24,000 bases of DNA. Source: Thermoplasmata archaeon. GTDB lineage: Archaea; Thermoplasmatota; Thermoplasmata; RBG-16-68-12; SOIM01. The notes below the pieces were generated by a model. The model was not told the origin of the DNA and ran no database searches. It saw nothing but the letters and a program-made list of their open reading frames with translations. Each line of letters starts with the position of its first letter. Positions within the stretch are counted from its first letter, which is position 1. Position numbers and translations under genes: made by a program. The stretch spans positions 29,180 to 53,179 of the forward strand of contig JAGLME010000003.1 in the NCBI GenBank assembly GCA_023140195.1. The letters run 5' to 3'. Below, piece after piece: positions 801 to 16,695 of this stretch.

Positions 801-938
801 CTACTCCTCCTCTTTGTTCTTCCGTTGGCTTGGAAGGACTATGATGTTGAGTGGAATGATCTGTCCGCTGTCGTCATCATCCTTGGGGTAGATGACGCTC
901 TTGCCCTCTGGTGCTATTTTGTGGAATCGCAGTTTCAT
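801..938 (-). CDS. small hypothetical protein (45 aa)
   Basis: Hand-translated: ATG at 938, TAG at 803-801, MKLRFHKIAPEGKSVIYPKDDDDSGQIIPLNIIVLPSQRKNKEEE. It is below the ORF-track length cutoff. A TTTTAAGTA box lies about 30-37 nt upstream on the minus strand and a T-rich run follows the stop. No family recognised. Confidence 0.3.
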   Translation of the reverse strand: MKLRFHKIAPEGKSVIYPKDDDDSGQIIPLNIIVLPSQRKNKEEE

Positions 939-1099
939 CGTATCTGTAGTTCATACCACCCTAGGATACTTAAAACGGAAGCAACGGATTATCGTGGCTG
1001 ATTATCTTTTGCACAACTGGTAATACCGACCAGATGCGGTTTGCACCGCTCAACATTCAACTAAACCAGAACAAATCCGCGAAGGTCCAGGATGGCCGT

Positions 1100-1447: not shown

Positions 1448-1615
1448 ATTTATTCCCCTACCCACTGTCCACAACCTTTGCTATTGGTGAGTAAACCCAG
1501 CGTAAAGTGTTCAGATACTTAAAGTATGCCCTATCAGTTTTCTGTTAAGATAAGAGACATTTTTTTTCACGGTCATCAATCACTTGGTGACTGGTTAGGG
1601 ATTCGTCTCTGACCA

Positions 1616-1667
1616 CGGGGGTCGACCGAGAGTTCTCGTAACTTTCATGGTGTGTCAACGACCCCCG
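1616..1667. repeat. perfect 9-bp inverted repeat (CGGGGGTCG ... CGACCCCCG) enclosing a 34-nt loop with a nested CGAG/CTCG hairpin
   Basis: Read directly: 1616-1624 is CGGGGGTCG and 1659-1667 is CGACCCCCG. It lies in the intergenic gap between the regulator and the HNH gene. Confidence 0.5.
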
Positions 1668-1730
1668 AAATCTCTAAAAGGAGGGAGATGATATTTCCAC
1701 ACCATAATCAAGAGTGAGAGACTAGTAACC

Positions 1731-2135
1731 ATGGCTCACAAATGGTACAAGTTGAGTCAAAAGGCATTCGAGAGGGACAACTACACGTGCCGAAACTGTG
1801 GACAGAAATCGAAAACTCGGACTGAGCGTCACTTCTCAAGAGTATACTCTTACATATCACCACCCCTAGTAGCACATCATATCGTAAGAGATGATGATTA
1901 CTGCAATACGCCACTATCCAATCTAAAGACCTTGTGCCAGCCATGTCACAACAAGTACAAAAGAGACGATTCATTGTTCTACAGAAACCAGAGGAAATGG
2001 AAAGCACCTCAGTGGATTGACATAACGAAACCAGCAGAACGACCACCAGAAGAATGGGAATGTCTCAAATGTGGCAGTATGTTTGATTTATCTCTGAGGA
2101 CAACCTGTCCCAAATGCAGAGCCTTTTTCAGGTGA
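1731..2135 (+). CDS. HNH endonuclease with C-terminal zinc ribbon
   Basis: 134 aa, ATG start. The HNH pattern is CRNCG ... AHHIV ... NLKTLCQPCHNKY (CxxC, HH, N, CxxCH). It is followed by CLKCG ... CPKCR. Confidence 0.8.
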   Translation: MAHKWYKLSQKAFERDNYTCRNCGQKSKTRTERHFSRVYSYISPPLVAHHIVRDDDYCNTPLSNLKTLCQPCHNKYKRDDSLFYRNQRKWKAPQWIDITKPAERPPEEWECLKCGSMFDLSLRTTCPKCRAFFR

Positions 2136-2299
2136 GAAAACTCCAAAAGATTCATTACAGATGAATTACAGAGATACGACTGACACAGCATGAAAGAATG
2201 TGGAATAGTGAATAGACTGCCGAGGGTTTTCGACCCGCCAATCCTACCCTGTCTCGTTGATAGGGTGGAGAATATGCTTAGATGCATCAAGTCTGTGGA

Positions 2300-3420
2300 A
2301 TTCTTCCCGAGGTTCAAAATCGAGCGCTTCCCCGATTGCCCTTGAACTACGTGGGAGTCTTTATCTCACTTCGGGTCTTGTGATAAGTAGACCAATCTAT
2401 CAAATTAGACCATCCGTCGTTAAATGGCAACTTGATTCCAGCAATCCTCGCAGGTGTGGTCTTGAGCGTCTGATGTGGTCGAATGAAATTGTAATTCAAC
2501 GAGAAACCGTCCAGTAGTTGCCTAGGGTTCATGAACGCCCGCATCACCTTCGTTCGCTCCTTGAGGGTGTTGTGGAAGCGCTCAATCCTGTTGTTATTGC
2601 TGGGCATCGCCTTCGATATGCCCGCCTTCTGAATGAAGTTGATTTTGTCGTGAACGGTTCTCCCACCGAGAGCCATCTTCAATCCACCGTAGTAAGTCGG
2701 TAGTCCATCACAGATTACGGTTTCTGGAATCTCTTTGGAAGTCTCATAAGCATCCTTGAACACCGCCTTGGCATCTTTCTTTGTTCTTGTCTTTGACAGG
2801 TGAGTACCAAGAATCATTCGGGTATCTCTGTCCATCACTTCCCAGTACCACCACCCCTCGCCTTTGACCCTCACATAAGTTTCGTCAACATGCCAAATCC
2901 CGCCGAGAGTAGGAGTCAGCGACTGAACGAACTCCTTTACGAGGGGAGAGTACTTTTGGATCCAATTCCACACCGTGACTTGGCTGACCTTCACCTTGAA
3001 CAACTTCAGCAGATGCTTGGCAACCTTCCTCAGGCTCAGACCGTCATAGTAAACCTCCAAGGCGAACGCAATCGCTTCCTTCGGAACCCTCATCCTCGTA
3101 TGGTTGTCAGGATTCACGAACTTGTGTCCGCATGACTTGCACAAGAATCTCTGCTTTCCGTTCTGCTTTCCATGCTTCACAAGCTTGTCGGAATTGCAGA
3201 ACTTGCATCCTCCATTATCACTCAGGATTTCCCCGACGAAAGGGTTATTAGCACCGAAGTCGTTGACCTTTCTTGAGGTTGATAGCACAATATCAATCTC
3301 CATGAAACAGGGGTGTTCAACCACCCGCTGTTTCTCAATACTGGCAATGGGTTTCGAGCATATAAGCAGTGTCTGGAGGGGTCGGTGAAAATCGGGTTTT
3401 GAAACGAAAAAAGGCTTCCA
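2300..3420 (-). mobile_element. IS element (IS6-like); ends not resolved
   Basis: A single DDE transposase ORF nearly fills the interval. I found only weak terminal-repeat candidates by eye: TTCAAAA and CCCGATT words near 2312-2337 and, inverted, near 3387-3405. The boundaries are therefore approximate. Confidence 0.45.
2347..3324 (-). CDS. DDE transposase, IS6-family-like, with N-terminal zinc finger
   Basis: 325 aa. The zinc finger is CKFCNSDKLVKHGKQNGKQRFLCKSCGHKF. The DDE triad context is WHVDETYVRVKG, VICDGLPTY and NNNRIERFHNTLKERTK, followed by YNFIRPHQTL. Codon 1 at 3324 is GTG; an ATG at 3303 is an alternative start. Confidence 0.85.
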   Translation of the reverse strand: MVEHPCFMEIDIVLSTSRKVNDFGANNPFVGEILSDNGGCKFCNSDKLVKHGKQNGKQRFLCKSCGHKFVNPDNHTRMRVPKEAIAFALEVYYDGLSLRKVAKHLLKLFKVKVSQVTVWNWIQKYSPLVKEFVQSLTPTLGGIWHVDETYVRVKGEGWWYWEVMDRDTRMILGTHLSKTRTKKDAKAVFKDAYETSKEIPETVICDGLPTYYGGLKMALGGRTVHDKINFIQKAGISKAMPSNNNRIERFHNTLKERTKVMRAFMNPRQLLDGFSLNYNFIRPHQTLKTTPARIAGIKLPFNDGWSNLIDWSTYHKTRSEIKTPT

Positions 3421-3526
3421 TTTTCCACTCAGACGCTCTGTAGTCGAATCTGACGCACTTTCACTTTCATTCGAAGGAAAGGCATTTAAAGATAGTTGCT
3501 CATATCCTAATTGTAATCACCTTGGG

Positions 3527-3614
3527 TGCCCCCATGCGGACTTGAACCGCAATCTCCTCCTAGGTCTACCATGTGTGTCATGGGGAGGCGGTCTTCCGTT
3601 TAACCTATGGGGGC
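3527..3614 (-). tRNA. tRNA gene with a 16-nt insertion in the anticodon loop (probable intron); isotype unresolved
   Basis: Minus-strand read: GCCCCCA TA GGTT AAACGGAA GACC G CCTCC [CCATGACACACATGGTAGACCTA] GGAGG AGAT TGCGG TTCAAGT CCGCA TGGGGGC A. It has a perfect 7-bp acceptor stem, a G18G19 D-loop and a canonical T-arm. The anticodon stem is 5 bp but encloses 23 nt instead of 7. CCA is not encoded. A TTAAAAAG box lies about 30 nt upstream. Confidence 0.7.
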
Positions 3615-3637
3615 GTGTCCCTCTTTTTCTGTTCTTT

Positions 3638-3862
3638 TTAAGGCAGTTTTGTGCCACATTCCTTACACTTATCCTTATCAATACCATTCCCTGCACCACA
3701 ATATGAACACATTACCCAATGGCTGTCGACGAATTTATTCCAATCCTTAACATCCTCAACTAGACCAGATACCAAGTCACCAAAGGACAAAGCATATCTT
3801 CGTGTGAGCCTCTGCAAGATTCGATATTCCTTTTCGAATATCCTGATGGGGTATGTGGGCAT
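3638..3862 (-). CDS. small putative DNA-binding protein with C-terminal zinc ribbon
   Basis: 74 aa, ATG start. The N-terminus (IRIFEKEYRILQRLTRRYALSFGDLV) looks ribbon-helix-helix-like. The C-terminus is CSYCG ... CKECG. It is divergent from the 4087 gene. Confidence 0.55.
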   Translation of the reverse strand: MPTYPIRIFEKEYRILQRLTRRYALSFGDLVSGLVEDVKDWNKFVDSHWVMCSYCGAGNGIDKDKCKECGTKLP

Positions 3863-3975
3863 TCATTTCACCTTCTCTGCTACAGTGTTACTGGAGGAAT
3901 CCAGTAACTTTGTAACACAGATACTGCCACTGGATAAAAAGAACCCGTTTCATGTGCAATGGATATATCTGTAGC

Positions 3976-4035
3976 GGAACAGATATGTTCTGGGCGAAAC
4001 AAATACGTTCTGCCCGAAACGTATACATTACACAG
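3976..4035. repeat. three tandem imperfect 20-bp repeats in a divergent intergenic region
   Basis: Copy 1 (3976-3995) is ggaacagatatgttctgggc. Copy 2 (3996-4015) is gaaacaaatacgttctgccc. Copy 3 (4016-4035) is gaaacgtatacattacacag and is degenerate. Copy 1 contains the palindrome GAACA-GATA-TGTTC. Confidence 0.55.
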
Positions 4036-4086
4036 AACAAGGAACATCACAGAGAACTACTTATCCACTCGATTATTCCTCAATTG

Positions 4087-4341
4087 ATGAGTCATACGAT
4101 ACATGATGACATAATCATCATAATCAGGACTCTCCAAGAATCACCTGATTTGACCATTAGAGGACTTCAGATTAAGATGAAACGGCTGAGAAAGACCTTG
4201 ATATACAGAGATAGGCTGTTGGATCTCTGCGAAGTTCTCGAAATGCTGAACATACTGGAAGTTGATGAGAAGCCAAACATGACCTATCTCAAACTGACCG
4301 AATATGGAGAGGAAGTATCTAGAGAACTGGGCTCGAAATGA
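4087..4341 (+). CDS. small winged-helix protein (84 aa)
   Basis: This is the C-terminal part of track ORF 3952-4341. I start at the internal ATG 4087 (MSHTIHDDIIIIIRTLQESPDLTIRGLQIKMKRLRKTLIYRDRLLDLCEVLEMLNILEVDEKPNMTYLKLTEYGEEV). The upstream 45 codons overlap the repeat array and look non-coding. The helix-turn-helix plus wing pattern is similar to MarR/PadR-size proteins. Confidence 0.5.
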   Translation: MSHTIHDDIIIIIRTLQESPDLTIRGLQIKMKRLRKTLIYRDRLLDLCEVLEMLNILEVDEKPNMTYLKLTEYGEEVSRELGSK

Positions 4342-4487
4342 CTTCTCACGAAAACCTTTTTATCAGTCCTTGCGGATTCTGGTTCGGAACTGCATTACCT
4401 AGAGCGGGAAAGTCGGGGAGATAGTCTCTACTCGTTCTTTCTAGGCGATGTAGTTCCAGCTGTCTCTTCGATTCTAAAGTCGAAGAG

Positions 4488-4814
4488 ATGAGACGGAGTG
4501 ATGAAATGAAAGGAACTGAGTACGAAGACTACCGAATGGAGAAGAGCAAGTACATCGGGTCGACAATTTTCTATATTGGAGCCATTCTTCTGTGTATGGG
4601 GTTAGCTTTTTCCTACATCCTATCCTATGACATCGATACATCATACGGTCAAGAACTTGGGTATGTTTGGGTGCCCACAGCAACGGACTTGTCCAAGATA
4701 CTTGTCATTGTTGGAACGGCAATGGTCTTCATCGGCGGAGTCTGGGCTATTGATGTTGGGTGGTACATCAACAAGAAACGTGCGGAAGAGTTTTGGGCAA
4801 CGCATAAGAAATAG
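4488..4814 (+). CDS. small membrane protein, two predicted TM helices
   Basis: 108 aa, ATG start. The hydrophobic spans are IGSTIFYIGAILLCMGLAFSYIL and ILVIVGTAMVFIGGVWAIDVGWYI, followed by a basic tail KKRAEEFWATHKK. No family recognised. Confidence 0.5.
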   Translation: MRRSDEMKGTEYEDYRMEKSKYIGSTIFYIGAILLCMGLAFSYILSYDIDTSYGQELGYVWVPTATDLSKILVIVGTAMVFIGGVWAIDVGWYINKKRAEEFWATHKK

Positions 4815-4928
4815 CTGAGTATTCAAAATCAAAACATATCCTAACTCTCATGTCTCTTTACTTAACAAAGTACCCTATCAGAATCAGGTCGATTCCCGGT
4901 CATGACAACCGGTCGGAAAAACCGTCTC

Positions 4929-5273
4929 TCAGTGGCTGATTGGAGTGTTCAGCTTGATCCAGGTGTTGTTGATCGGCTCCTGGGTTTTGAATTCCAACTT
5001 CACCTTGAAGACCCCATCCTCGTACATGATGCAGGCCTTCAGCAGATGTGAGCGGTACAGCTTCATGCTCTTGCCCTTGCGGGTTGTCACGATCTTCTGA
5101 CACTTGAGGAGGCCCGCGTCCTCCAGTTCGTGTATCTTGCGGTAGCACGCTGCTATGGGCACGTCGTATGTATCGCTGATCTCTTGAGCAGATCTTGCTG
5201 AGAAATATGTTGCTGCAAGAATACGTTCTGCGTAATCGTCAGTAAGTAGCCTCGAGATCTCTTTTTCTCGCAT
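4929..5273 (-). CDS. winged-helix (ArsR-like) transcriptional regulator, paralog of 1100-1447
   Basis: 114 aa, ATG start. SAQEISDTYDVPIAACYRKIHELEDAGLLKC and KGKSMKLY align with the 1100-1447 protein at roughly half of the positions. Confidence 0.75.
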   Translation of the reverse strand: MREKEISRLLTDDYAERILAATYFSARSAQEISDTYDVPIAACYRKIHELEDAGLLKCQKIVTTRKGKSMKLYRSHLLKACIMYEDGVFKVKLEFKTQEPINNTWIKLNTPISH

Positions 5274-5350: not shown

Positions 5351-7090
5351 CTACACAATCGGGGTCAGATTCGTCTTCGGATATCCCTTCGAAACATCGA
5401 AGGACAGAGCGAAGAGCTCGGTGAACGGCTTCTCCCCGTAGAGCACTACCGAGCCGTCAATGTTCTCTATCTTCAGGTGAGTGTGAGCGACGTTGGCCAA
5501 CTTGCCAATGGACTCGTCCGTCGGCACCAGAATTCCCACAAAGATGTCCTTGTCCCTTCTGATCGACGTCAGGTGTGCTGTGAGGCCTTCTATCAGTTCC
5601 CCACCGCCGTACATGGATTCCAAGGTGTCAAATGAGAGGATTGACAAGTATGGATGTTTCGAATCCTGCAGGCTGAACTCTATCTTCTTCCATTTCAGAT
5701 CCTCAGCGACATCTCCTCCGTCCAGCGCGATCGCGTTCTCAGCGCCTACGAAGGTCTCCAGTTGCAGCGCCTCGAAGACCCTGACGTACTTGTTGTACAC
5801 TTCCTCTCCCAGGTATGGTGATATCTGACCTGCCACGATCTCCGCAGGAGCCCTCTTGGATGGCAAGAATGCCACTCCCCGGCTCTGAGCGGCGAAGTTG
5901 GATATGATCCCGGCTTTGATATTGTCGATGTAGTAGCTGGGGACGTTTCCGCCCACCTCTATCGCAATTATGGATCCCTTCTTCACCCCTCCTATGAGCT
6001 GATCCAGCTCCTCGTTCCCGGTTGAGACGACATCCTCTGAGACATCCTGGACCACCTTCCAAGGCTTGATCTCCTGTGGCATCTCTTCCTGGCCGAACGC
6101 GAAGGTCCTCACCCGTCCGTCCTTCAGAGTGTAAATGTACTTGTGCTGGGTGATCTCGGACCCTCTCAGTTTCTCAATGTTCAGGACCCTCAACCTTCGT
6201 CCCTTGTGCTCCGCCTTGGCGAAGGAGATCACACCATCTCCCAGATAGTCAAGCTTGTTGTCCATGCCGGTCTCCAGGATGTAGAGAACATCCGCCTGTG
6301 ATTGCTCCACCAGATCCTTCTGGAGGGTGTTGATGAGCTTGGATGAGTGAACACCATATCTCTCGCTTAGAGCGTCAATGCTGTCGATTAGGACCAGTGT
6401 CTTGTCCGGAAGGGTCTGCTCGACCATGTCGTATGCCAGATCTATCTCCGGGAGATCCGATCCAAGGTCGAAGATTATTGTGTCCTCGAGGAATGAACCT
6501 TCCCCAAGACCGCCGAAGTCCTCGTCCATGCCTTCCTCTCCCATCTCGATCCTCCCTTCCAGTTTTTGCAGCTCTTGGCGGTTCACTTTCTGACCGCCCA
6601 AGGATGTACCTTCCAGGGACCGAAGCAACTGCTGGGCCGTTCTGATCCTCACTTCCAGGGCCACATCAGTGTCCTTCTCCTGATGAACGTAGTTCGAGGT
6701 GAGCGTCTTTGCGTAGCTCTTGGCCATCTTCAGTTTCTCTTTCTCCGCCAGCTTCTTCCTCAGCCATGGGAATTGGTTGTACAGCGATTCGTCTGAGACC
6801 CTCACTGAGATGTAATGGCTCTTGGTTATGTTGTCCAGCTCCTCGGCTAGCTGCAACGCAAAAGTGGTCTTTCCTGTACCTGCCAGCCCTTTGACGATCA
6901 ACGAATGACCGCCGGGGCCTTTGAAGAAGTTCACGAGTTCTGTTGGTATTCCCGCTGATCCTGTCAATTTCCCACCTCGGGAGGTCGAGATTGACGTCGG
7001 TATAAGATACTTTGGCCCTCTATTATCAGTTCTGATATCGATGTTCGGAAGGGCGTAGATGACCGTCCCGTCTTGGATCGCGCAAGTCAC
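5351..7090 (-). CDS. tandem RecA-superfamily (KaiC/RadA-like) ATPase: active N-terminal domain, degenerate C-terminal domain
   Basis: 579 aa, GTG start 10 nt after the UDG stop. Walker A is GLAGTGKTT (nt 6863-6889) and the Walker-B-like strand is TLVLIDSID. The second domain (LIGGVKKGSIIAIEVGGNVPS) lacks the GKT lysine. Confidence 0.85.
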   Translation of the reverse strand: MTCAIQDGTVIYALPNIDIRTDNRGPKYLIPTSISTSRGGKLTGSAGIPTELVNFFKGPGGHSLIVKGLAGTGKTTFALQLAEELDNITKSHYISVRVSDESLYNQFPWLRKKLAEKEKLKMAKSYAKTLTSNYVHQEKDTDVALEVRIRTAQQLLRSLEGTSLGGQKVNRQELQKLEGRIEMGEEGMDEDFGGLGEGSFLEDTIIFDLGSDLPEIDLAYDMVEQTLPDKTLVLIDSIDALSERYGVHSSKLINTLQKDLVEQSQADVLYILETGMDNKLDYLGDGVISFAKAEHKGRRLRVLNIEKLRGSEITQHKYIYTLKDGRVRTFAFGQEEMPQEIKPWKVVQDVSEDVVSTGNEELDQLIGGVKKGSIIAIEVGGNVPSYYIDNIKAGIISNFAAQSRGVAFLPSKRAPAEIVAGQISPYLGEEVYNKYVRVFEALQLETFVGAENAIALDGGDVAEDLKWKKIEFSLQDSKHPYLSILSFDTLESMYGGGELIEGLTAHLTSIRRDKDIFVGILVPTDESIGKLANVAHTHLKIENIDGSVVLYGEKPFTELFALSFDVSKGYPKTNLTPIV

Positions 7091-7100
7091 GCTAGATATT

Positions 7101-7667
7101 CTATTTGGAGGCTAGACGCTCGGCCCTCTTAAGGTCCGTGACTATCTCCTTCTGCAAGCCACGATTGTAGATGATGGCAGCCGGATGGTACGTCACCACT
7201 ATCGGCACCCCATTGTGATCCAGTTTCTTCCCCCTCAGTTCTGCTATCTTCTGCATGGCGCCGATAAGGCCTTTGGCGCCAAATCTTCCGAGAGCGACCA
7301 GGACCTTCGGGGATATTGTGCTGATCTGGCTCTCCAGGTGGGGTGTGCATGCTTCGATCTCGTCGGTCTTCGGATTCCTGTTCTTTGGCGGTCTGCACTT
7401 CAATACGCTGGTGATGAAGACCTGTTCCCTATTCAGACCTGCTGCTTCCAGTGCCTCGTCCAGGATCCTCCCAGCATACCCAACGAACGGCCTGCCTAGC
7501 TCGTCCTCTGATTTTCCCGGAGCCTCCCCGATGAGTATTATCTTAGCGTTGGATGCCCCCTCACCAGGTACCGCGTGGGTCCTGCTTTTCGCCAGATGAC
7601 ATCTCCTGCACCGTCTGACCCTTGTTGCGATCTTCCTGAGTTCGTCCTTCTTGGCCAAGGCATTCAC
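7101..7667 (-). CDS. udg: uracil-DNA glycosylase, family 4 (Fe-S type)
   Basis: 188 aa. The motifs are CRRCHL, GEAPGKSED and PFVGYAGRILD, plus the later Cys residues (LKCRPP, EACTPHL). GTG start, 3 nt after the PolX stop. Confidence 0.9.
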   Translation of the reverse strand: MNALAKKDELRKIATRVRRCRRCHLAKSRTHAVPGEGASNAKIILIGEAPGKSEDELGRPFVGYAGRILDEALEAAGLNREQVFITSVLKCRPPKNRNPKTDEIEACTPHLESQISTISPKVLVALGRFGAKGLIGAMQKIAELRGKKLDHNGVPIVVTYHPAAIIYNRGLQKEIVTDLKRAERLASK

Positions 7668-7670
7668 CCT

Positions 7671-9413
7671 CTACCTGAGATATGTTTTGAGCTCTTCAGC
7701 GGTCATCGTGTTGAGAACGTCCTCCTTCTCCAGCCATCCGCGTCTCGCCGTTCCCACCCCGAATTTGATGAATTGCAGATCATGGATGCTGTGGGTATCC
7801 GTGCCCAATGATATCTTCGCCCCAGCCTCCTTTGCCATTCTAGCGTGCGGCCCGTTGAGGTCCAGTCTGTCCGGGAAGCAGTTGATCTCAAGTGCCGTCC
7901 TGGTTTCGGCCGCCTCATCCATTATCTCTTCGATGTCCAGTTCGTAAGGGTCCCTCCTGCCTATGAGACGTCCGGTCGGATGCGCGAGTATGTCCATGTT
8001 CTCGTTCCTCATCGCCTCCACCATCCTCTCGGTCATCTGCCTTTCCGGCATCGAGAATTTGGAATGGACTGCTCCCACAACCACATCCAATTCCTTTAGG
8101 ATCGAGTCATCCAGGTCGAGCTCTCCATTGTCCTTGATGTCCGCTTCGATGCCTGTGAGGATCTTGAAGTCCCTCATCTTCCTGTCGACCTTCTTCACCT
8201 CCTTGATCTGCAGTTCAAGCTCTTCCTCGGAAAGTCCGTTCGCAATCTTGAGAGACTTGGAATGATCTGTGATCGCGATGTATTCTCTTCCCTGGGCCTT
8301 GGCGGCCTCCGCGATACCTTGGATGCTCTTCCCTCCGTCGCTCCAGTCCGTGTGAACATGCAGATCCCCTTTGACGTCCTCAAGTTCGATCAGGTCCGGG
8401 AGCTTTCCGTCCAGCGAAGCCTCTATCTCTCCAGCATCCTCTCTTAGTTCGGGTGCAATGTAAGACATTCCCAGCAGTTCGTAGATCTCTTCTTCCCCCT
8501 TCCCACCTATCTTCTCATCACCTTCAAAGACCCCGTATTCGTTGATCTTCAGCCCCATTCTCTGAGCGATCGACCTGAGATGTATGTTGTGGTCCTTGGA
8601 GCCGGTGAAGTACTGCAGTGCGGCGCCGAAGCTTCCTGACTCGACCACCCTCAGGTCCGCTTGGAGGTCACCTTCCAGGTAAACAGTGGTCTTGGTCTTT
8701 CCCTTGAGGGCCACATCCTCAACATGTGGCAGGTTCGAGAATGCGTCCATTACGACCTCGGGATTCCCCGAGACCGCCAGTATGTCAATGTCTCCCACGG
8801 TTTCCTTCATCCTTCTCAGCGATCCGGCCACACTTATCTTCTCCACCTTGGATCTGAGGCTCTCCACCACTTCCTCAGCGATTGGCAGGGCCTCTCCGAG
8901 CAGCATCCTTCCCTTTGTCCGCTTGAGCATCTCTATGCCTTTCAGAATGTTCTTCTCGGTCTTCTCCCCGAAGCCCCTTAACCGTCTTATCCTCCTCTCT
9001 CTCGCCGCCTTCTCGAGCTCATCCAGGCTTGATATCCCCCTCTCCCTGTAAAGAAGTCCTGCCTTCTTGGGCCCCATTCCGGGAACCGCCAGGATATCGA
9101 GCACTCCCTGAGGAATCTCCGTTCTCAACCTCTCGTGAAGTGGAATCTTGCCTAAGTCCAGGTACTCCCCGATCTTCTTAGCGATGTTCTTGCCGATGCC
9201 CTGCAACCCAGTCAGTTCCCCCCTCTTCCTGATCTTCTCCAGGTCCTCTGGAAGTTCCTCTATCACCCTTGCCGCCCATCGATACGCTCTCGGCGTGAAC
9301 TGCTCGTTCTTGATGTCCAGCATGTCAGCGATCTCGTAGAGGATCCTCGCGATCTCCTGGTTCTTCACGGATTGAGAATTCTGGATTGGCGATAAATAGT
9401 TTCTCTCACTCAC
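7671..9413 (-). CDS. polX: family X DNA polymerase with C-terminal PHP domain
   Basis: 580 aa. The HhH motifs are GIGKNIAKKI and VPGMGPKKA. The nucleotidyltransferase motif is GSLRRMKETVGDIDIL. The PHP motifs are GDLHVHTDWSDG and ITDHS. Codon 1 at 9413 is GTG; the in-frame GTG at 9368 (VKNQEIARILYEIADML) is an equally plausible start. Confidence 0.9.
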   Translation of the reverse strand: MSERNYLSPIQNSQSVKNQEIARILYEIADMLDIKNEQFTPRAYRWAARVIEELPEDLEKIRKRGELTGLQGIGKNIAKKIGEYLDLGKIPLHERLRTEIPQGVLDILAVPGMGPKKAGLLYRERGISSLDELEKAARERRIRRLRGFGEKTEKNILKGIEMLKRTKGRMLLGEALPIAEEVVESLRSKVEKISVAGSLRRMKETVGDIDILAVSGNPEVVMDAFSNLPHVEDVALKGKTKTTVYLEGDLQADLRVVESGSFGAALQYFTGSKDHNIHLRSIAQRMGLKINEYGVFEGDEKIGGKGEEEIYELLGMSYIAPELREDAGEIEASLDGKLPDLIELEDVKGDLHVHTDWSDGGKSIQGIAEAAKAQGREYIAITDHSKSLKIANGLSEEELELQIKEVKKVDRKMRDFKILTGIEADIKDNGELDLDDSILKELDVVVGAVHSKFSMPERQMTERMVEAMRNENMDILAHPTGRLIGRRDPYELDIEEIMDEAAETRTALEINCFPDRLDLNGPHARMAKEAGAKISLGTDTHSIHDLQFIKFGVGTARRGWLEKEDVLNTMTAEELKTYLR

Positions 9414-9451
9414 CCAGAACCCTTTTTATGTCCCTCTTTGATTATGCCCTG

Positions 9452-10276
9452 ATGAAGCTGATCGTCGTCTCAAGGAACGACACCGCCAGTCTGAACATCT
9501 CCAAGAATCTCTTGAACTTGAGGGAATGGGAGGACGCAGGAGAGTTCTCTGGCAATCCCCTTCGCAAGAGTGGGGACTTCTTGATGGCAACGATCAATGA
9601 CGAACACCTCTCCCATGACGGTCTTGACCGAGAGCTCCAGGAATCGACAGACATTGAACCAGAGGTCATGATATTCGCGTCAAGACACAAGAGCGCTTCC
9701 GGGCTTAGGAGCTTCACCGTTCACACGCCGGGCAACTTCTCCAAGGCAGAGATGGGAGGCAGGAGCGGGGAACTGGTGCCTTCCAGCCCCCACTACAAGA
9801 CGAACGCCCTGAGGAATCTGAAGGAACTCGCCAAGAACATGGACCACACCGTCTCATACGAGGCCACACACCACGGACCCTACCTTGAGACACCGGCATT
9901 CTACATCGAGATCGGAAGCGACGAGACCTGCTGGGTGGAAGAGGAAGCCGGACGTGTAATCGCGGAGGCGATTCTCTCCATTGATCAGGAGAAGGACCCT
10001 GTTGCAATTGGGATCGGAGGCGGACATTATGCGCCTCGGCATACCGACGTCGCTCTCAAGAACCGTCTGTGCTTCGGGCACATCATTGCCAATTACGCAC
10101 TTGAATCGATAACTGAAGAGATGTTGGCCAAGGCGATCGACAGGACCCCGGATGCAGAATATGTGTATTTCCACAGGAAGGCGATGAAGAAACCGCAATA
10201 TCGGGAACTCAAGGCTTGGTTCGAGGATCACGGTCTTCAGGCGGTGAGCCAGAAGGACATCCCGAGCAGACTCTGA
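9452..10276 (+). CDS. dtdA: D-aminoacyl-tRNA deacylase, archaeal type
   Basis: I start at ATG 9452 (MKLIVVSRNDTASLNISKNLL), which matches the usual N-terminus of this family; the track ORF begins at 9386. It also has the SRHKS and EATHHGP motifs. 274 aa. Confidence 0.85.
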   Translation: MKLIVVSRNDTASLNISKNLLNLREWEDAGEFSGNPLRKSGDFLMATINDEHLSHDGLDRELQESTDIEPEVMIFASRHKSASGLRSFTVHTPGNFSKAEMGGRSGELVPSSPHYKTNALRNLKELAKNMDHTVSYEATHHGPYLETPAFYIEIGSDETCWVEEEAGRVIAEAILSIDQEKDPVAIGIGGGHYAPRHTDVALKNRLCFGHIIANYALESITEEMLAKAIDRTPDAEYVYFHRKAMKKPQYRELKAWFEDHGLQAVSQKDIPSRL

Positions 10277-10348
10277 CGGTGCTACACCTTAGACTTTCTG
10301 GCCAAAAGACTAATATTCAATCCATCCATTATGCCTTGAGGGTGTGGA

Positions 10349-10987
10349 ATGCTCAAGGAGTGCAGGTCCCACGGTTTCTTCCGTGAAGAGTTCTGTCCAT
10401 CATGCGAAGGCAAAGGGAAGTTCCTTCTGAGTGATAGCGAACTGGACAGTCTGGGCAGGACGATGGCGGGCGTTCTCCGTCATTTTCCGGAGAGATATGG
10501 GCTGGACATGGACGAACATGGTTTTGTGGATCTAAGGGATTTCATCACTGCGTTGCAGATCAGGAACAAGAAGTTCAGGTTCCTGAAACCTCATCATATT
10601 CTGGGTGTCATCGAGACCGACGCAAAGGGGAGGTACGAGTTCAGGGACGGAAGGATCAGGGCGACATACGCCCACTCCTTCGAGGTGGACCTGGACCTTC
10701 CTCAGGACAACATCCCGACCATTCTCTACTTCCCGACGACGGAGGAGGAGACCCCCATACTGCTGGAAATCGGTCTGAAACCCTCGGACAGGAAGATGGT
10801 CCACCTGAGCCACTCTTACGAGGACGCCATGGAGGCTGGGAGAGTCAGGACCGACGATCCGATAATCCTAGAGGTAAACACCGAGAAGGCGATTGACCAA
10901 GGTGTCGTGATAATGAAGGCTGGCAAGACCGTCTACGTCACCAAAGAGACACCACCAGACTGCCTTTCCACTGCAAAGAAGAGGTAG
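10349..10987 (+). CDS. kptA: RNA 2'-phosphotransferase (Tpt1/KptA family) with N-terminal zinc ribbon
   Basis: 212 aa. CRSHG...CPSCEG is followed by LGRTMAGVLRH, HGFVDLRDF, GRYEF...IRATYAHS and VHLSHSYEDAMEAGRVR, corresponding to the conserved Arg/His catalytic positions of the family. Confidence 0.85.
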   Translation: MLKECRSHGFFREEFCPSCEGKGKFLLSDSELDSLGRTMAGVLRHFPERYGLDMDEHGFVDLRDFITALQIRNKKFRFLKPHHILGVIETDAKGRYEFRDGRIRATYAHSFEVDLDLPQDNIPTILYFPTTEEETPILLEIGLKPSDRKMVHLSHSYEDAMEAGRVRTDDPIILEVNTEKAIDQGVVIMKAGKTVYVTKETPPDCLSTAKKR

Positions 10988-11066: not shown

Positions 11067-11897
11067 ATGGAGATGCGCATGACCACAGGTTTCGATATTA
11101 TTGGCAACAATAAGGCACTGCAGGACCATTGGCTCAGGCGAATAGTCGCTCTCATCATTGATGGGATAATAATCGGTGTAATTGCCTTCTTGGTCAGCAT
11201 CGTTTTCTGGATTCTCTCCCCCATAGGATTCATCGGATGGTTCTTCTCGGGACTTCTGATGTTTCTGTACTTCATCGCCTTCGAAATGATGATGGGCGGG
11301 ACTCCAGGAAAGAAGCTCTTGAGCTTGGAAGTAGTGTCGACCCAAGAGGGAGAGCTGAGCTTCGTGTCCTCCCTCATGAGGAACATATCCAAGATATTCT
11401 GGGTATTCCTGCTGATAGACTGGATCGTCGGAATGTTCACGGACGGCGATCCCCGACAGAAGATGTTGGACAGATATGCTAATACCACGGTTCAGAGAAC
11501 CGACCAGCGGGCCTACATGGAACAGCAGTTCAGACAGATGGCCTATGTGCCACCCCATCCCACATACCAACCACCACCGGGGCAACCCCAGCAGCAGTCA
11601 TACCAGCCCTCACAGCAGACCCAGCAGCAGCCGCAGGGACAAGCGGGCGCATGGCCACACCAAGAGGAGAAGCCGAAGACCGACTGGCCCCAGCATGACC
11701 CCGGTCAGGCACCGCCACAGCAGCAGCCACAAGCACAACAACAACCCCAGCAGCAGTCTTACCAGCCTCCGCCACAACAGCAAGCAAGCCAACCACCTCA
11801 ACAGGACGCACCGAGGTTCTGCCAGAATTGTGGAACCACACTCACACCTGGAGCTGACGGAAGACCAACTTGCGGGAATTGCGGGAAGACGTACTAG
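11067..11897 (+). CDS. RDD-family membrane protein with Pro/Gln-rich linker and C-terminal zinc ribbon
   Basis: 276 aa. The RDD signature is WLRRIVALIIDGIIIG, with three hydrophobic spans. A P/Q tract of about 90 aa follows, then CQNCG...CGNCG. Confidence 0.8.
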   Translation: MEMRMTTGFDIIGNNKALQDHWLRRIVALIIDGIIIGVIAFLVSIVFWILSPIGFIGWFFSGLLMFLYFIAFEMMMGGTPGKKLLSLEVVSTQEGELSFVSSLMRNISKIFWVFLLIDWIVGMFTDGDPRQKMLDRYANTTVQRTDQRAYMEQQFRQMAYVPPHPTYQPPPGQPQQQSYQPSQQTQQQPQGQAGAWPHQEEKPKTDWPQHDPGQAPPQQQPQAQQQPQQQSYQPPPQQQASQPPQQDAPRFCQNCGTTLTPGADGRPTCGNCGKTY

Positions 11898-13051
11898 GTT
11901 ACGATCTTCTCCATCGCATCCATTTCTATTCCGCGTCTTATCTCCAGTGCCAACCTTCTTCCGGTGCTCATAATGGTTCTCCAGATGGAGTTGCCATATG
12001 GGTGACCGACGGCCAGGTGTACGTTCGTTCCTCCACCGACCCTCGGCGAAACGTCATAAATCCAGAAGTTCAAATCCTTGTCAACGCACGTCTGCAGAGT
12101 GAAGGCCCCTATCATTCCCGGCGAGTAGTACTCCTTGGTGCCCTCCACGTATTTCTCAGCAAGCGGGAACACCTTCCTCAACAGCGACTCCCTCAATGTG
12201 GCGCTGTTGTGGCCGCAGACCGTGTATTCGGGCGTCGCCTGTGATTCGAGCAGGGTCATCTGCTGTGGTGCGGGAAGTCTCACATGTCCATCAAGTGAGG
12301 TCTCGAACCTCCAGTCTATGCCCAGAAGCTCGAGTTTCTCTGCGCCTTCTGTCAGCGGTGAATAAAAGAAATCGAAGTTGAACACCGGACCGACGATGTA
12401 CTCCTCTATCCTCGCCTTTTCGAGATCCTCTTTCGTTATGACGTCGTTCCTCAGGAGAGCTTCCACTTTCTCGATATACTCCTTGTAGCTGGCCGCCGTG
12501 AAGAATCCCCGTTCCAACCTCTTGACCTTGTGGGGGAGCTTGACCATGACCAGGAAATCGATGTCCTCCGGGTTCTCAAGTTTCTTGGGGAAGGGCATAT
12601 CCATCTTCTCCAGTATCCAGTAATAGTCCCTGTCCTCTCCCCTCTCTTCCGATCTCAACAGGTTCCTGCTGCCGACTATGGGCACGTAGAACTCGTTCTC
12701 CACGCCGTCGATTCCGGCATAGGCCACAAGCGACCTGTGCGGGGCGAAGACAGCATTCTCCCCGATTATCATGTCCTGGTTCTTGGGTTCCAGGATCTCG
12801 TTGAACTTGTCGAAGACGACCGCCTTGTCCACTATTCCCCTGACGAGCGTCCCGTCCGCTGAACGCTCGGCCTTGAAGTAGCGAGTGTAGGGTTCCTCTC
12901 TCCCCTTCTCGCATATCACCATTGTCTGGAATCCTTCGTCCACGGCACCATCGCAAACATCCAGCGCAGAATGGGATCCCAGGACTCCGATCTTCGCTTT
13001 GCTCAAGTCATATTTCTCAAGTGATTCAAGAACTCTCTTTCTCTCTATCAT
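11894..13051 (-). CDS. purP: 5-formaminoimidazole-4-carboxamide ribonucleotide (FAICAR) synthetase PurP
   Basis: IGVLGSHSALDVCDGAVDEGFQTMVICEKGR and the ATP-grasp body match archaeal PurP. I start at ATG 13051 (MIERKRVLESLEKYDLSKAKIGVLGSHS), which is preceded by GGAGGT. The track ORF extends to 13111. Confidence 0.9.
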   Translation of the reverse strand: MIERKRVLESLEKYDLSKAKIGVLGSHSALDVCDGAVDEGFQTMVICEKGREEPYTRYFKAERSADGTLVRGIVDKAVVFDKFNEILEPKNQDMIIGENAVFAPHRSLVAYAGIDGVENEFYVPIVGSRNLLRSEERGEDRDYYWILEKMDMPFPKKLENPEDIDFLVMVKLPHKVKRLERGFFTAASYKEYIEKVEALLRNDVITKEDLEKARIEEYIVGPVFNFDFFYSPLTEGAEKLELLGIDWRFETSLDGHVRLPAPQQMTLLESQATPEYTVCGHNSATLRESLLRKVFPLAEKYVEGTKEYYSPGMIGAFTLQTCVDKDLNFWIYDVSPRVGGGTNVHLAVGHPYGNSIWRTIMSTGRRLALEIRRGIEMDAMEKIVT

Positions 13052-13116
13052 AACCTCCCCACCGGTCGAATCGGTAATCACCATCGGGATATTAAGAGTT
13101 GCCCAAAACAAGGGAG

Positions 13117-13187
13117 TAGCCCCGGCCGGATTTGAACCGGCGACAAGAGATCCAAAGTCTCCTATGTTACCTCTACACCACGGGGCT
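13117..13187 (-). tRNA. tRNA-Gln (anticodon UUG)
   Basis: Minus-strand read: AGCCCCG TG GTGT AGAGGTA ACAT A GGAGA CTTTGGA TCTCT TGTC GCCGG TTCAAAT CCGGC CGGGGCT A. All stems pair. It has A1-U72 and A73, and no encoded CCA. 71 nt. Confidence 0.9.
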
Positions 13188-13215
13188 ATATCACTTCAGC
13201 GAATAGCGTTACCCT

Positions 13216-13223
13216 TTCATAAA
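13216..13223 (-). promoter_or_regulatory. TATA-like box TTTATGAA upstream of tRNA-Gln(UUG)
   Basis: It lies 29-36 nt upstream of the tRNA 5' end. A near-identical box (CTTATGAA) sits at the same distance from the other tRNA-Gln. Confidence 0.4.
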
Positions 13224-13263
13224 CTGTACTTTGACGCTGGAAGAGGACAAGACGCCTCTCCAG

Positions 13264-14952
13264 CTATCGTTGGGCCTTTTGTTGCTTTTGTATCTTTGCC
13301 CATTCGTCCCTGAGTCCCACTGTTCTGTTCAGGACCAGATTCTCTGAGGTCGTGTCCGGGTCCACGCAGAAATAACCCAGTCTCTCGAACTGGAATCTGT
13401 CGAATGGCTTGAGGTCCTTCACACCAGGCTCCACCTTGCATGACCTGAGAACCTCTGATGAATCTGGGTTAATCAGGTCCTTGAAGTCCGCGTCCTTCTC
13501 TCCGAGAGGATTTGGAACTGTGAACAGCCTGTCGTACAATCGCGCCTCGGCGTCGACCGCGTGCTCTGCCGACACCCAGTGGAGAGTGGATTTGACCTTT
13601 CTGCCGTCGGGTGCATCCCCGCCTTTGGTGTCCAGATCGACAATGCATCTGAGTTCCGTTACTTCTCCGTCTTCCTTGATGGCCTCCTTGCATGTGATGA
13701 AGTAGGCGTACCTGAACCGGACCTCTCTTCCTGGTGCCAACCTGTAGAACTTCTTCGGCGGGTCCTCCATGAAATCATCCTTTTCTATGTATAGAACCCG
13801 GGAGAACGGAACCTTCCGCGTCCCAGCGCTCGGGTCTTCCGGATTGTTGATCGCGTCGAACTCCTCCACCTCGTCCTCTGGGTAGTTCTCGATGACCAAC
13901 TTCAGAGGGTGAAGCACACCCATGAATCGCGGTGAGGTCTTGTTGAGGTCGTCCCTGAGGCAGTGCTCCAGAAATTCAATATCGACCGTGCTGTGTACCT
14001 TGGCCACTCCTATTCGGCCGCAGAAGGACCTGATGGCCGACGGCGAATATCCTCGCCTCTTGAGGCCGGTCAGGGTAGGTAGCCGGGGATCGTCCCAACC
14101 GTTGACATGTCCATCTTCCACAAGCTCCAGCAGCTTCCGCTTGCTCATGACTGTGTAGGTGAGATTCAGACGTGCGAACTCGATCTGCTGTGGGTGATAT
14201 ACACCAAGCTCGTCCAGGAACCAGTCGTAGAGAGGTCTGTGGTCCTCGAACTCAAGACTGCATATGGAATGCGTTATGTTCTCTATCGAATCTTCAAGGC
14301 CGTGGGCCCAGTCATACAAGGGGTAGATGCACCATTTGTCCCCGGTGTTGTGGTGTGTAGCGTGGAGGATCCTGTAGACCACCGGGTCTCTCATGTTCAT
14401 GTTGGGGTGCGCCATGTCTATCTTGGCTCTCAGCACATACTCTCCGTCGCCGAACTCTCCTGCCTTCATCCTTTCCAACAGGTCCAGATTCTCCTCAACA
14501 GGACGGTTCCGGTACTTGCTCTCTATGCCTGGGGTCGTAAGTGTGCCCCTGTACTGGCTGATCTCCTCTGCCGACATCTCATCTATGTATGCGCTGCCCT
14601 TCTTGGTCAGCTGGACCGCGTAATCGTACAACTGATCGAAGTAATCCGAAGCGAAGTAGAGCCGATCCTCCCAGTCGAAACCCAACCACTTGATGTCCTC
14701 GATTATGGACTTAACGTAGATCTCCTCCTCCTTGGCTGGATTGGTGTCGTCGAACCGCAGGTTACACTTACCTCCATATTCCTCAGCTATTCCGAAGTTG
14801 ATACAAATGGACTTAGCGTGGCCTATGTGCAGGAAGCCGTTCGGCTCGGGCGGGAATCTGGTGTGCACTCTACCTCCGTGCTTGCCGGTTCGGTTGTCCT
14901 CGTCGATTATCTGGCGTATGAAGTCTCGAGGTGCCTTCTCTTCTGTCGTCAT
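13264..14952 (-). CDS. glnS: glutaminyl-tRNA synthetase (bacterial/eukaryotic GlnRS type)
   Basis: 562 aa, ATG start. [67 protein letters not shown] is near-colinear with E. coli GlnRS ([55 protein letters not shown]). It has the VMSKRKL (KMSKS) motif. The C-terminal anticodon-binding barrels ([37 protein letters not shown]) also match. Confidence 0.95.
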
Positions 14953-14956
14953 TGTA

Positions 14957-15027
14957 TAGCCCCGGCCGGATTTGAACCGGCGACAAGAGATCCAGAGTCT
15001 CTGATGTTACCTCTACACCACGGGGCT
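14957..15027 (-). tRNA. tRNA-Gln (anticodon CUG)
   Basis: Minus-strand read: AGCCCCG TG GTGT AGAGGTA ACAT C AGAGA CTCTGGA TCTCT TGTC GCCGG TTCAAAT CCGGC CGGGGCT A. It is identical to the UUG copy at 68 of 71 positions; the differences are at positions 26, 27 and 34. Confidence 0.9.
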
Positions 15028-15054
15028 GCCTGACATGTAATGTAGAAGTGGTGA

Positions 15055-15062
15055 TTCATAAG
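15055..15062 (-). promoter_or_regulatory. TATA-like box CTTATGAA upstream of tRNA-Gln(CUG)
   Basis: It lies 28-35 nt upstream of the tRNA 5' end, in the 60-nt gap after the lysK stop. Confidence 0.4.
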
Positions 15063-15087
15063 TTTCTATTTATCCTTTGCTGGAGCG

Positions 15088-16695
15088 CTATCGTCTCTTA
15101 AGAGCATCGTCCAGTCTTTCGAGCACAAAATCCTTGTTCAAGACTGATAGGAACGGCGCCGCCCTGGGACCCTGCTCCTTTCCAAGCATCGCGAGGTACA
15201 GGTTCCTGAAGAATCTTCTCGTGTTGACAGGGAATCCCTCTCCTTTTGTCATCTGCATCATCGCCTCCTTCAACGCGTTCTCGTTCCAATCGGCCTGAGC
15301 AATCACTTCTCTGAATGTCTCGAGGGACTTGAGATCATCTTCCGTGAGTGCGTTCCTCACATCCTCCGGCACTTCTTCGAGCAGTTCCACATGATACGAC
15401 TCAGGTGCATACTTTTTGATCCAGGTCTCCGCCAGCTCCAGCCTTCCCGAGAGGTGCTCCGACTCGTCATCCGCGAGGTCCTTCCGCAGTATTCCAGTGT
15501 CCGTCAATCTGGAGACCACCCAGTGCAGCTTGTCCTTGGGCGGGGATATCTGGGTAAGCAATGACGCCTCTTTGTAGGGCAGAATGAACATGTCCTCCCG
15601 TGCGACGAAGTCGACTGCGGAGATCTCAAAGGTCCTCGCAGCCAGCTCACCCTGTTCATCCCTCTCCTTCTCCCAATAGCTTTGGAATCCCGCATCCAGA
15701 TGATCGTGATATATGTCTGTCTTGGAGAGGTCCAGGACTATCCTCTTGGACGGATTGGCCTGCAGGTAGATGTATCTCAGAGCCTGGGGCTCTCCCAGTT
15801 CCAGCCATTCCCTCGGCGTGAACCCCTTGAAGGCAGAACTGCTCATATCGCCCAGGTCTGTCCCTTCGCTCGACATTCCCACCCATTCATAGGGGATCCC
15901 GAATGGCGGCTCCAGGCCCATGATGTTCTTGGCGATGTCCTTGCAGCTGTCTCTCGACCCTCCGGGTGTTGCGTGGTCCTTTCCGAACGGCTCTATGTCC
16001 ACTTCGAGAACCTTCCACAGAGACGGCCACTCCAACCGCCAGTTCAGTTTCCCTTCGTCGATGCCTGAGACACCTTCTCCCCCGCACGAACACTTGTATG
16101 AAACCTGTCCGTCATCCGACACCGAGAGAGCTTCCGCCGTGCCGATTTTCATGCAGCTCTTGCAGAGCGGTTCAAATGGTATCCAACCTTCAGGATACTT
16201 CCTCCTCCCCCTGTACTTGTTGATGGTCTCACGGATCACGTCCCCTTTCTTCAGCAGTTCCAGTACATTCTCTTTCATCTCCAGGGTCTGATAGACCTGA
16301 GTTGTAGATGTGATATCCACTTTCTTTGCGAACTCATCCAAGACATCCCCGAAATCCTTCCAGTAATGGTCCACCCATGATCCGTGACATCCTTTCGGGT
16401 CCGGGACGTCGATCAGCCTTCTCCCGATGTATTCCTTGCCTTCCTCGCCTTCGAACTGCTCCAACTGGCCATCCTTGCCCTTCCAGGAATCCTGGGTGTA
16501 AAGAACGAGTATCTGCTTGACCGCTTTCCCGCCATTCCTGAGACTTTCCGCGACCGCATTCGCAAGGACGACCTCTCCTCTGAGCCTCCCAACATGCTGC
16601 AGTCCCGAGACTGACAGGCCGGCAGAAATGACGATAGATTCCTTCTCTCCAAGAAAACTCTCTATTCGATGGATTAGCTCATCAAACCAGTGCAT
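15088..16695 (-). CDS. lysK: lysyl-tRNA synthetase, class I
   Basis: 535 aa, ATG start. It has the characteristic MHWFDE N-terminus, the SGLQHVGRLRGEV (HIGH-region) motif and a DMSSS (KMSKS-like) motif. The length is typical of class I LysRS. Confidence 0.85.
   Translation of the reverse strand: MHWFDELIHRIESFLGEKESIVISAGLSVSGLQHVGRLRGEVVLANAVAESLRNGGKAVKQILVLYTQDSWKGKDGQLEQFEGEEGKEYIGRRLIDVPDPKGCHGSWVDHYWKDFGDVLDEFAKKVDITSTTQVYQTLEMKENVLELLKKGDVIRETINKYRGRRKYPEGWIPFEPLCKSCMKIGTAEALSVSDDGQVSYKCSCGGEGVSGIDEGKLNWRLEWPSLWKVLEVDIEPFGKDHATPGGSRDSCKDIAKNIMGLEPPFGIPYEWVGMSSEGTDLGDMSSSAFKGFTPREWLELGEPQALRYIYLQANPSKRIVLDLSKTDIYHDHLDAGFQSYWEKERDEQGELAARTFEISAVDFVAREDMFILPYKEASLLTQISPPKDKLHWVVSRLTDTGILRKDLADDESEHLSGRLELAETWIKKYAPESYHVELLEEVPEDVRNALTEDDLKSLETFREVIAQADWNENALKEAMMQMTKGEGFPVNTRRFFRNLYLAMLGKEQGPRAAPFLSVLNKDFVLERLDDALKRR

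Follow-up and report, generated by a model that had tools for sequence, protein, structure and literature searches.

A bacterial-type glutaminyl-tRNA synthetase gene closely linked to derived tRNA-Gln genes in Thermoplasmata archaea

The DNA analyzed here is a stretch of 24,000 nucleotides (nt) from a Thermoplasmata archaeon (assembly GCA_023140195.1, contig JAGLME010000003.1, positions 29,180 to 53,179), called the window below, and our subject is the gene glnS on its minus strand (13264-14952). NCBIfam and Pfam assignments, matches to the Protein Data Bank (PDB) and key residues identify its product, a protein of 562 amino acids (aa) without a YqeY domain, as a bacterial-type glutaminyl-tRNA synthetase (GlnRS). 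The gene lies between tRNA-Gln(CUG) upstream (14957-15027) and tRNA-Gln(UUG) downstream (13117-13187), both also on the minus strand.

The original prediction, made from the sequence of the window, took this open reading frame (ORF) for a GlnRS and not an archaeal glutamyl-tRNA synthetase (GluRS), nearly colinear with the Escherichia coli enzyme and matching its KMSKS motif and C-terminal barrels. The family models agree: the ORF scores 721.4 bits with the glnS model TIGR00440, above the cutoff of 425.8, and 344 bits with the archaeal GluRS model TIGR00463, below the cutoff of 401.75. Pfam detects the class I E/Q catalytic domain and both anticodon-binding beta-barrels (PF03950, PF20974), and the protein is 58% identical to E. 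coli GlnRS, with which it is colinear across residues 3-554. Against PDB entries, E. coli GlnRS scores 713 bits, human GlnRS 487, and the archaeal GluRS 3AII 182. The best-scoring NCBIfam model is NF011291, describing a GlnRS/YqeY fusion (857 bits, cutoff 681), but the match spans positions 10-565 of 769. A YqeY fusion was rejected, the C-terminal domain being absent from the 562-aa protein, and the public name "glutamine--tRNA ligase/YqeY domain fusion protein" is therefore misleading.

The class I motifs HIGH and VMSKR occupy residues 42-45 and 268-272 of the window protein. In an alignment of 88 homologues, read in E. coli numbering, R30, Y211, S227, C229, F233 and Q255 are conserved in the window GlnRS and in all archaeal homologues examined, as are H40 and H43 of HIGH, the MSK of KMSKS, the U35/G36 readers R341 and R402, and Q517 and R520. 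The glutamine-selecting residues R30, Y211, C229 and Q255 are kept in 72/72 bacterial homologues as well, and in every archaeal homologue that has the position (that of locus L007 is truncated at the N-terminus). Two of these, C229 and Q255, are the positions that tell glutamine-specific from glutamate-specific enzymes, and a divergent archaeal GluRS was rejected on these residues and the family scores. Leu136, which opens the tRNA's first base pair, is present in the window GlnRS; the position is mostly hydrophobic in other homologues (L, V, I, W) and is proline in 7 of the 72 bacterial ones. With ratios of nonsynonymous to synonymous substitution rates (dN/dS) of 0.04 and 0.06 relative to the loci L180 and L181, glnS is under strong purifying selection. 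Judged by these comparisons, the ORF is a true GlnRS. An antisense ORF of 308 aa that overlaps it (14107-15033) is almost certainly spurious.

Exactly two tRNA genes were found in the window by ARAGORN, both tRNA-Gln and both on the minus strand. They score 61.8 bits (CUG) and 65.4 bits (UUG, placed by ARAGORN at 13116-13187) with the Rfam model RF00005, and a repeat search returned them as two 71-nt direct copies of 96% identity (68/71) with a start-to-start spacing of 1840 nt. The arrangement originally described, with GlnRS between CUG upstream and UUG downstream as 68/71 direct repeats 1.84 kb apart, is thus confirmed. The copies differ at the wobble base (C34 or U34) and at two neighbouring bases, positions 26/27, three differences in all. 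Both genes have A1-U72, G2-C71, C3-G70, G10, a short D-loop and the discriminator A73, and encode no CCA. The pair A1-U72 together with A73 forms the hallmark of archaeal tRNA-Gln (PMC9499178), and both features, already noted in the original prediction, are read directly from the two genes.

Alignment of the tRNA-Gln genes across glnS loci separated two types. Type A, to which both window genes belong, has a D-loop 2 nt shorter, C32, and either A73 or G73 as the discriminator; type B has a long D-loop (TGGTCAATCAT), U32 and A73. The long D-loop TGGTCAATCAT is the usual archaeal form. Type A genes with A73 belong to the window subclade (the window, L180, L083, L001, L002 and L100), and those with the bacterial discriminator G73 are found in L085-L088, L102, L103 and L137. 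In four genomes both types occur within 3 kb of glnS (L085, 4882-7946; L088, 5276-7854; L100, 1636-3535; L137, 2886-4979), so that these genomes hold redundant CUG or UUG genes. Paired type A copies of one genome share lineage-specific substitutions: the two window genes, for instance, both have TAACAT/TTGTCG, and the two genes of L083 both have TAGCAT/TTGGCG. Such sharing is in keeping with either gene conversion or joint selection. We infer that the linked tRNA-Gln is a derived variant descending from the archaeal tRNA-Gln with A1-U72.

Only 4 nt (UACA; 14953-14956, minus strand) separate A73 of the CUG tRNA gene, which ends at 14957, from the glnS ATG at 14952, a gap too small for glnS to have its own promoter or a Shine-Dalgarno site. 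The start of glnS is secure, because a reading in frame from the stop codons within the tRNA gene meets no start codon before this ATG and the encoded N-terminus aligns with E. coli GlnRS from residue 3; an alternative start was rejected, as none exists between the stops and the conserved DFIRQ motif. The same junction, in the form tacg, is found in the assemblies L081 and L082 and in the 92-94% identical relatives L180 (93% protein identity, synonymous divergence dS 1.2) and L181; the 4-nt gap is kept in three relatives that differ in sequence. In relatives of 74-83% identity the spacers are 29-106 nt long, and in most of them GGTGA stands 6-8 nt ahead of the start codon, with GAGG in its place in L087; those of L083, L001 and L102 hold a conserved box cacccAAATGcTTAT, and that of L002 a close variant. 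The window lineage has lost both GGTGA and the cacccAAATGcTTAT box, though purP, 200 nt away, uses GGGGAGGT.

Sequence comparison upstream of the CUG tRNA gene revealed two promoter-like boxes on the minus strand, GATAAATAG (15066-15074) and TTATGAA (15055-15061). The heptamer TTATGAA lies 27-28 nt upstream of the 5' end of each tRNA (15055-15061 and 13216-13222), in line with the matching upstream boxes first reported, and GATAAATAG, seen at the CUG gene, is the better conserved of the two and recurs in L180, L083 and L001. The second copy of TTATGAA falls in the 76-nt spacer that leads from the stop codon of glnS to tRNA-Gln(UUG) (13188-13263, minus strand), which has no oligo-T run. A T-rich run just after the UUG gene, TTGTTTT (13105-13111, minus strand), is a candidate archaeal terminator of the whole unit.

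As in tRNA-mRNA units, the CUG tRNA gene and glnS share a strand, and the gap between them is too short for a promoter plus a ribosome-binding site. Read-through followed by processing of the tRNA 3' end is the most likely source of the glnS mRNA: one transcript would start at the putative promoter that lies upstream of the CUG gene and extend through glnS, probably into the UUG gene; RNase Z would cut after A73, producing a nearly leaderless glnS mRNA beginning 5'-UACAAUG, and RNase P would free the downstream tRNA-Gln(UUG). In the window lineage the three genes would then form one expression unit, in which the enzyme and its substrates are made together.

Linkage of glnS to tRNA-Gln genes is widespread in this clade. 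According to ARAGORN, run on all fetched loci, a tRNA-Gln gene occurs within 1 kb of glnS at 18/19 distinct Thermoplasmata-clade loci, and the exception, L101, starts 126 nt upstream of glnS, with its upstream side outside the sequence. Among the Heimdall loci, 2/3 have a tRNA-Gln(UUG) gene just downstream of glnS, and among ~145 bacterial-type loci 2 have a nearby tRNA-Gln gene (L143 and L145); the difference between the Thermoplasmata and bacterial loci is significant (Fisher p ~8e-21). The exact CUG-glnS-UUG order is seen in the window, L180, L083, L001, L087 and L137, in the last two amid different neighbouring genes. In L085 and L088 a tRNA-Gln gene lies directly downstream of glnS and one or two more lie upstream, close to lysS, and L084 and L007 have tRNA-Gln downstream of glnS only. 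The direct-glutaminylation module of the original prediction, which may be self-contained, gains support in that the linkage is conserved in these proportions and the layout recurs in two contexts, though it is not a singular event.

The neighbourhood of this cluster is archaeal. Upstream lies the gene for a class I lysyl-tRNA synthetase (LysRS; 15088-16695, minus strand; TIGR00467, 314.8 bits), and downstream purP (11894-13051, minus strand), called as 385 aa in L081 and provided with its own TTAATAT box and the Shine-Dalgarno site GGGGAGGT. Further along is the gene for DtdA, a D-aminoacyl-tRNA deacylase (9386-10276, plus strand). NCBIfam and Pfam confirm PurP and DtdA, and with LysRS they make up the archaeal neighbours named in the original prediction. 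Other neighbours encode a GfcR-like phosphoribosyltransferase (PRT), Tpt1, PolX, PyrD and the electron-transfer subunit of dihydroorotate dehydrogenase B. The genes for DtdA and the RNA 2'-phosphotransferase Tpt1/KptA are adjacent (9386-10987) and close to lysS, glnS and the tRNAs, making the neighbourhood rich in tRNA-related genes.

The same locus was recovered from two different samples (L081 and L082, contigs 171 kb and 18 kb long), and an identical GlnRS protein is recorded from a metagenome-assembled genome (MAG) named "Thermoplasmata archaeon". Relatives with the same synteny include a 790-kb scaffold and closed chromosomes of 1.9-5.2 Mb (closed genomes CP070767.1, CP070739.1, CP070751.1, CP070672.1 and CP070798.1), and the order PRT-lysS-tRNA-Gln-glnS is retained in L081-L083, L085, L088 and L180. 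The guanine + cytosine (GC) content of glnS equals that of its flanks. Independent assemblies and closed chromosomes therefore place the bacterial-type GlnRS in a genuinely archaeal genome, as originally claimed.

Two parts of the window lie farther from glnS. A row of minus-strand genes (5351-9413) encodes a GvpD/KaiC-like double ATPase (5351-7090), a uracil-DNA glycosylase (7101-7667) and PolX with a PHP domain (7671-9413). Positions 1-5000 have a lower GC content (0.43-0.47 versus 0.52-0.55 elsewhere) and contain a minus-strand DDE transposase gene (2347-3324) and, on the plus strand, an HNH-endonuclease-like ORF (1731-2135); this region, which the sister assembly L082 does not reach, is probably a strain-variable insertion.

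Among the matches listed, at least 120 protein clusters are 77-100% identical to the window GlnRS, and all those named come from Thermoplasmata, Methanomassiliicoccales, Thermoplasmatales or Thermoplasmatota MAGs. By this measure GlnRS is widespread in a whole Thermoplasmata clade, and it looks long-established there. The original prediction would have failed if GlnRS had proved common and vertically inherited in the lineage with its tRNA flanking not conserved; it is common, but the flanking is conserved. The nearest proteins outside the clade are bacterial (Phycisphaerae, 72% identity; Kuenenia, 70%; E. coli, 58%). In a distance-based neighbour-joining tree of 88 sequences (100 bootstraps), built without eukaryotic GlnRS or a GluRS outgroup, the Thermoplasmata clade sits among the GlnRS of Planctomycetota and Nitrospirota; support is 97% for the core Thermoplasmata clade, 63% for all Thermoplasmata and 76% for Kuenenia as sister. 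Three Heimdallarchaeota GlnRS form their own clade with 100% bootstrap, and a grouping of all archaea appeared in 0/60 replicates. Since the Heimdall clade is separate and never joins the Thermoplasmata clade, the tree suggests at least two transfers of GlnRS from bacteria to archaea, one into Thermoplasmata and one into Heimdallarchaeia.

From the E. coli-type set of identity elements, the window tRNAs have a weak 1-72 pair (A-U), G2-C71, G10, U35 and G36, but C3-G70 stands in place of G3-C70, A73 of G73, G37 of A37 and A38 of U38. Asp235, the residue that contacts G3-C70 as its reader in E. coli, varies among the bacterial homologues (D in 37, N in 18, V in 9 and I in 5); among Thermoplasmata the A73 subclade has D at this position and the G73 subclade has N. 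This apparent covariation with the discriminator was dropped, since the position varies freely in bacteria, and no conclusion was drawn from it. At the two bacterial-type glnS loci with a tRNA-Gln(CUG) gene directly downstream (L143, 4736-4809; L145, 2288-2361), the tRNA has U1-A72 with C3-G70, A73, C32, G37 and A38; apart from the flipped first pair it closely resembles archaeal type A, and A1-U72 is a pair as weak as U1-A72. To judge from these tRNAs, the E. coli GlnRS identity set is not universal. The original prediction had pointed to a mismatch of identity elements: C3-G70 and A73 do differ from E. coli, but the mismatch was overstated, as Asp235 varies in bacteria, the L143 and L145 tRNAs have C3-G70 and A73, and archaeal relatives have G73. 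The barrier to transfer postulated in the literature may have been low for such bacterial GlnRS, because Asp235 is variable, the L143 and L145 tRNAs carry C3-G70 and A73, Leu136 is kept and the A1-U72 pair is weak. Further, the split into types A and B and the bacterial-like G73 in sister lineages point to co-adaptation of tRNA and enzyme.

We regard as probable the following explanation, which is drawn from sequence comparison. An ancestor of the Thermoplasmata clade would have acquired a bacterial GlnRS gene, with relatives of the Planctomycetota/Nitrospirota type, and the gene would have become fixed beside archaeal tRNA-Gln genes. The enzyme would charge glutamine directly onto both flanking, co-adapted tRNA-Gln, providing a direct route to Gln-tRNA-Gln that replaces or supplements GluRS plus the amidotransferase GatDE, and enzyme and tRNAs would be produced from one expression unit. 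Several points weigh against this explanation. The tRNAs are without G3-C70, G73, A37 and U38, so that charging by GlnRS is a prediction. A promoter inside the tRNA gene, where the T-loop TTCAAAT lies ~21-24 nt before the ATG, could make the mRNA without any processing. The backbone of the tree is poorly supported and the bacterial sample, chosen by shared peptides, is biased; matches of the metagenome scan were mostly bacterial, with at least 5 archaeal loci added among the matches listed. Finally, whether GlnRS has a sole or a redundant role hangs on GatDE elsewhere in the genome. Six-frame translations of ~90 loci had no match to G[LIVM]E[IVLC]H.[QEH][LIV], the motif at the N-terminus of GatB/GatE, and GLEIHQQL gave chance matches only, in viral contigs.

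The alternative with the best prospects, which we nevertheless hold to be the lesser chance, is that both pathways are in use, GatDE and a non-discriminating GluRS being kept so that GlnRS serves type A and the indirect route type B tRNA-Gln. The duplicate CUG/UUG genes of L085, L088, L100 and L137, which hold both types, would fit such a division, as would the constant position of type A beside glnS. Coexistence has a precedent, since some bacteria retain GlnRS plus an amidotransferase, according to PMC4206432. The window, however, has only type A genes, and both types keep A1-U72, the GatDE determinant, with no sign of orthogonality. The opposite extreme, that GlnRS fully displaced GatDE in the clade and travels as a three-gene unit with its co-evolved tRNA, is doubtful in our view; in this version the mRNA would be cut out by RNase Z and RNase P, and GlnRS binding to the precursor could throttle its own translation, which is possible because the start codon is 4 nt from a real tRNA-Gln.

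It is likewise rather unlikely that the linkage is a relic, left when the transferred gene landed in a cluster of tRNA-Gln and tRNA-Glu genes, with functional coupling absent. Clusters of tRNA genes are a usual target of integrating DNA, and in some lineages glnS apparently lies within a tRNA-Gln/tRNA-Glu gene cluster: tRNA-Glu genes are near glnS in L038 (5888-5965), L087 (9106-9182) and L137 (4991-5067). In L033 (2759-3056), ~950 nt from glnS, an intact tRNA-Gln(CUG) gene is accompanied ~150 nt off by a truncated duplicate, which matches it exactly for ~57 nt from the start before diverging and which looks like, and could be, a scar of integration at a tRNA gene. Arrangement and spacing also differ between lineages, as a relic would allow. 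Yet the linkage has outlasted rearrangement of all else between the window and L085 (LysRS 30% identical, PurP 37%, and other neighbours), the CUG-glnS-UUG layout recurs in the other gene context of L087 and L137, and linkage is also found in the separately placed Heimdall clade. In the window lineage, moreover, the spacer has been cut to 4 nt, making expression dependent on the tRNA gene.

The original prediction also proposed that the two repeats mediate excision or duplication of the module. We consider such a mobile cassette, in which the 71-nt direct repeats would allow glnS to be excised, duplicated or passed from one archaeon to another, distinctly improbable. The near-identical direct repeats 1.84 kb apart, the two genomic contexts and the lineage-specific substitutions shared by both tRNA copies, suggesting sequence exchange, speak for it, as does the far greater conservation of GlnRS between distant hosts than of neighbouring genes: the window and L085 or L088 share 78% identity in GlnRS, and 30%, 37% and 58% in the syntenic LysRS, PurP and phosphoribosyltransferase. 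This conservation could reflect either spread of a cassette among Thermoplasmata or a slow, saturating GlnRS clock, and slow evolution everywhere (GlnRS is at least 57% identical across bacterial phyla) can account for it. Against mobility, the layout is stable among relatives with dS > 1, the neighbours are housekeeping genes, and no integrase or transposase gene lies within 10 kb, the nearest transposase (2347-3324) being 10 kb off; no empty site or hybrid-tRNA locus without glnS was seen, though no dedicated search for one was made. The analysis thus lends no support to excision or duplication via the repeats; the lineage-specific changes that the repeats share suggest gene conversion. As for the low identity (~30%) of LysRS in the window (15088-16695) to that of L085 (3134-4696) and L088 (3210-4772), it could result from replacement of lysS or from very uneven rates.

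That a bacterial gene was misjoined to an archaeal contig or bin, as the bacterial type of the gene and its source in a metagenome assembly might suggest, can be discounted almost entirely, the same junctions having been recovered from two independent samples and from closed chromosomes that other projects produced, archaeal-type tRNAs lying 4 and 76 nt away on the two sides and the GC content being uniform; contamination or chimerism is excluded by this agreement of independent assemblies.

Comparison with known systems defines what is unusual in the acquired GlnRS and its unit. Like E. coli GlnRS (glnS; PDB 1QTQ, 1GTS, 1O0B), the window protein, 58% identical over the full length, has HIGH and KMSKS, R30, Y211, C229 and Q255, the Leu136 wedge at the 1-72 pair, R341 and R402 as readers of U35/G36, and two beta-barrels. 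It differs in its archaeal host, in the position of glnS between its tRNA genes and in its presumed substrates, with A1-U72, C3-G70, A73, G37 and A38 as opposed to U1-A72, G3-C70, G73, A37 and U38 in E. coli tRNA-Gln. The Deinococcus GlnRS/YqeY fusion described by the best-scoring model (NF011291) has the YqeY domain that the window protein lacks. With the archaeal GluRS plus GatDE route the system would share the end product, Gln-tRNA-Gln, and an A1-U72 tRNA, but here a class I synthetase would charge the tRNA directly, in one step. The Heimdallarchaeia GlnRS are also bacterial in type and have an A1-U72 tRNA-Gln(UUG) downstream in 2/3 loci, though they are 60-64% identical, form a separate clade and have other neighbours. 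Joint tRNA-mRNA transcription, or tRNA punctuation, is a feature of the E. coli thrU-tyrU-glyT-thrT-tufB operon and of animal mitochondria, where, as in the window, an mRNA adjoins tRNA genes on one strand; here too processing would set the mRNA ends. In the window, unlike these operons, the mRNA encodes the synthetase for the flanking tRNAs, the host is an archaeon, and co-transcription is predicted from the 4-nt gap.

A survey of >2500 genomes in 2016 did not find GlnRS in archaea, and reviews up to 2022 (including PMC9499178) still state its absence, so that the locus goes against the textbook view, as originally noted. The reason given in the reviews is that archaeal tRNA-Gln, shaped by GatDE, is unreadable by bacterial or eukaryotic GlnRS, and transfer should therefore fail. 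A 2024 preprint mentions in passing a GlnRS beside cox genes in Heimdallarchaeia (bioRxiv 10.1101/2024.07.04.601786). No paper on GlnRS in Thermoplasmata, and none citing the closed genomes, was found in a literature search outside subscription journals.

The enzyme family and its reaction are already known, and the genes are annotated in public MAG records; what is described here is a familiar enzyme found in a domain where it was not expected and in an unusual operon form, tightly coupled to derived archaeal tRNA-Gln genes. These observations will be of interest to specialists in synthetase evolution and code engineering. They indicate that transfer of GlnRS into archaea did occur and that the gene was kept under strong selection in a large and widespread clade, with an apparently independent repetition in Heimdallarchaeia. 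The linkage, the derived tRNA type and the G73 variants together make up a natural series for the adaptation of synthetase and tRNA after crossing domains, a series that includes candidate orthogonal pairs for engineering of the code.

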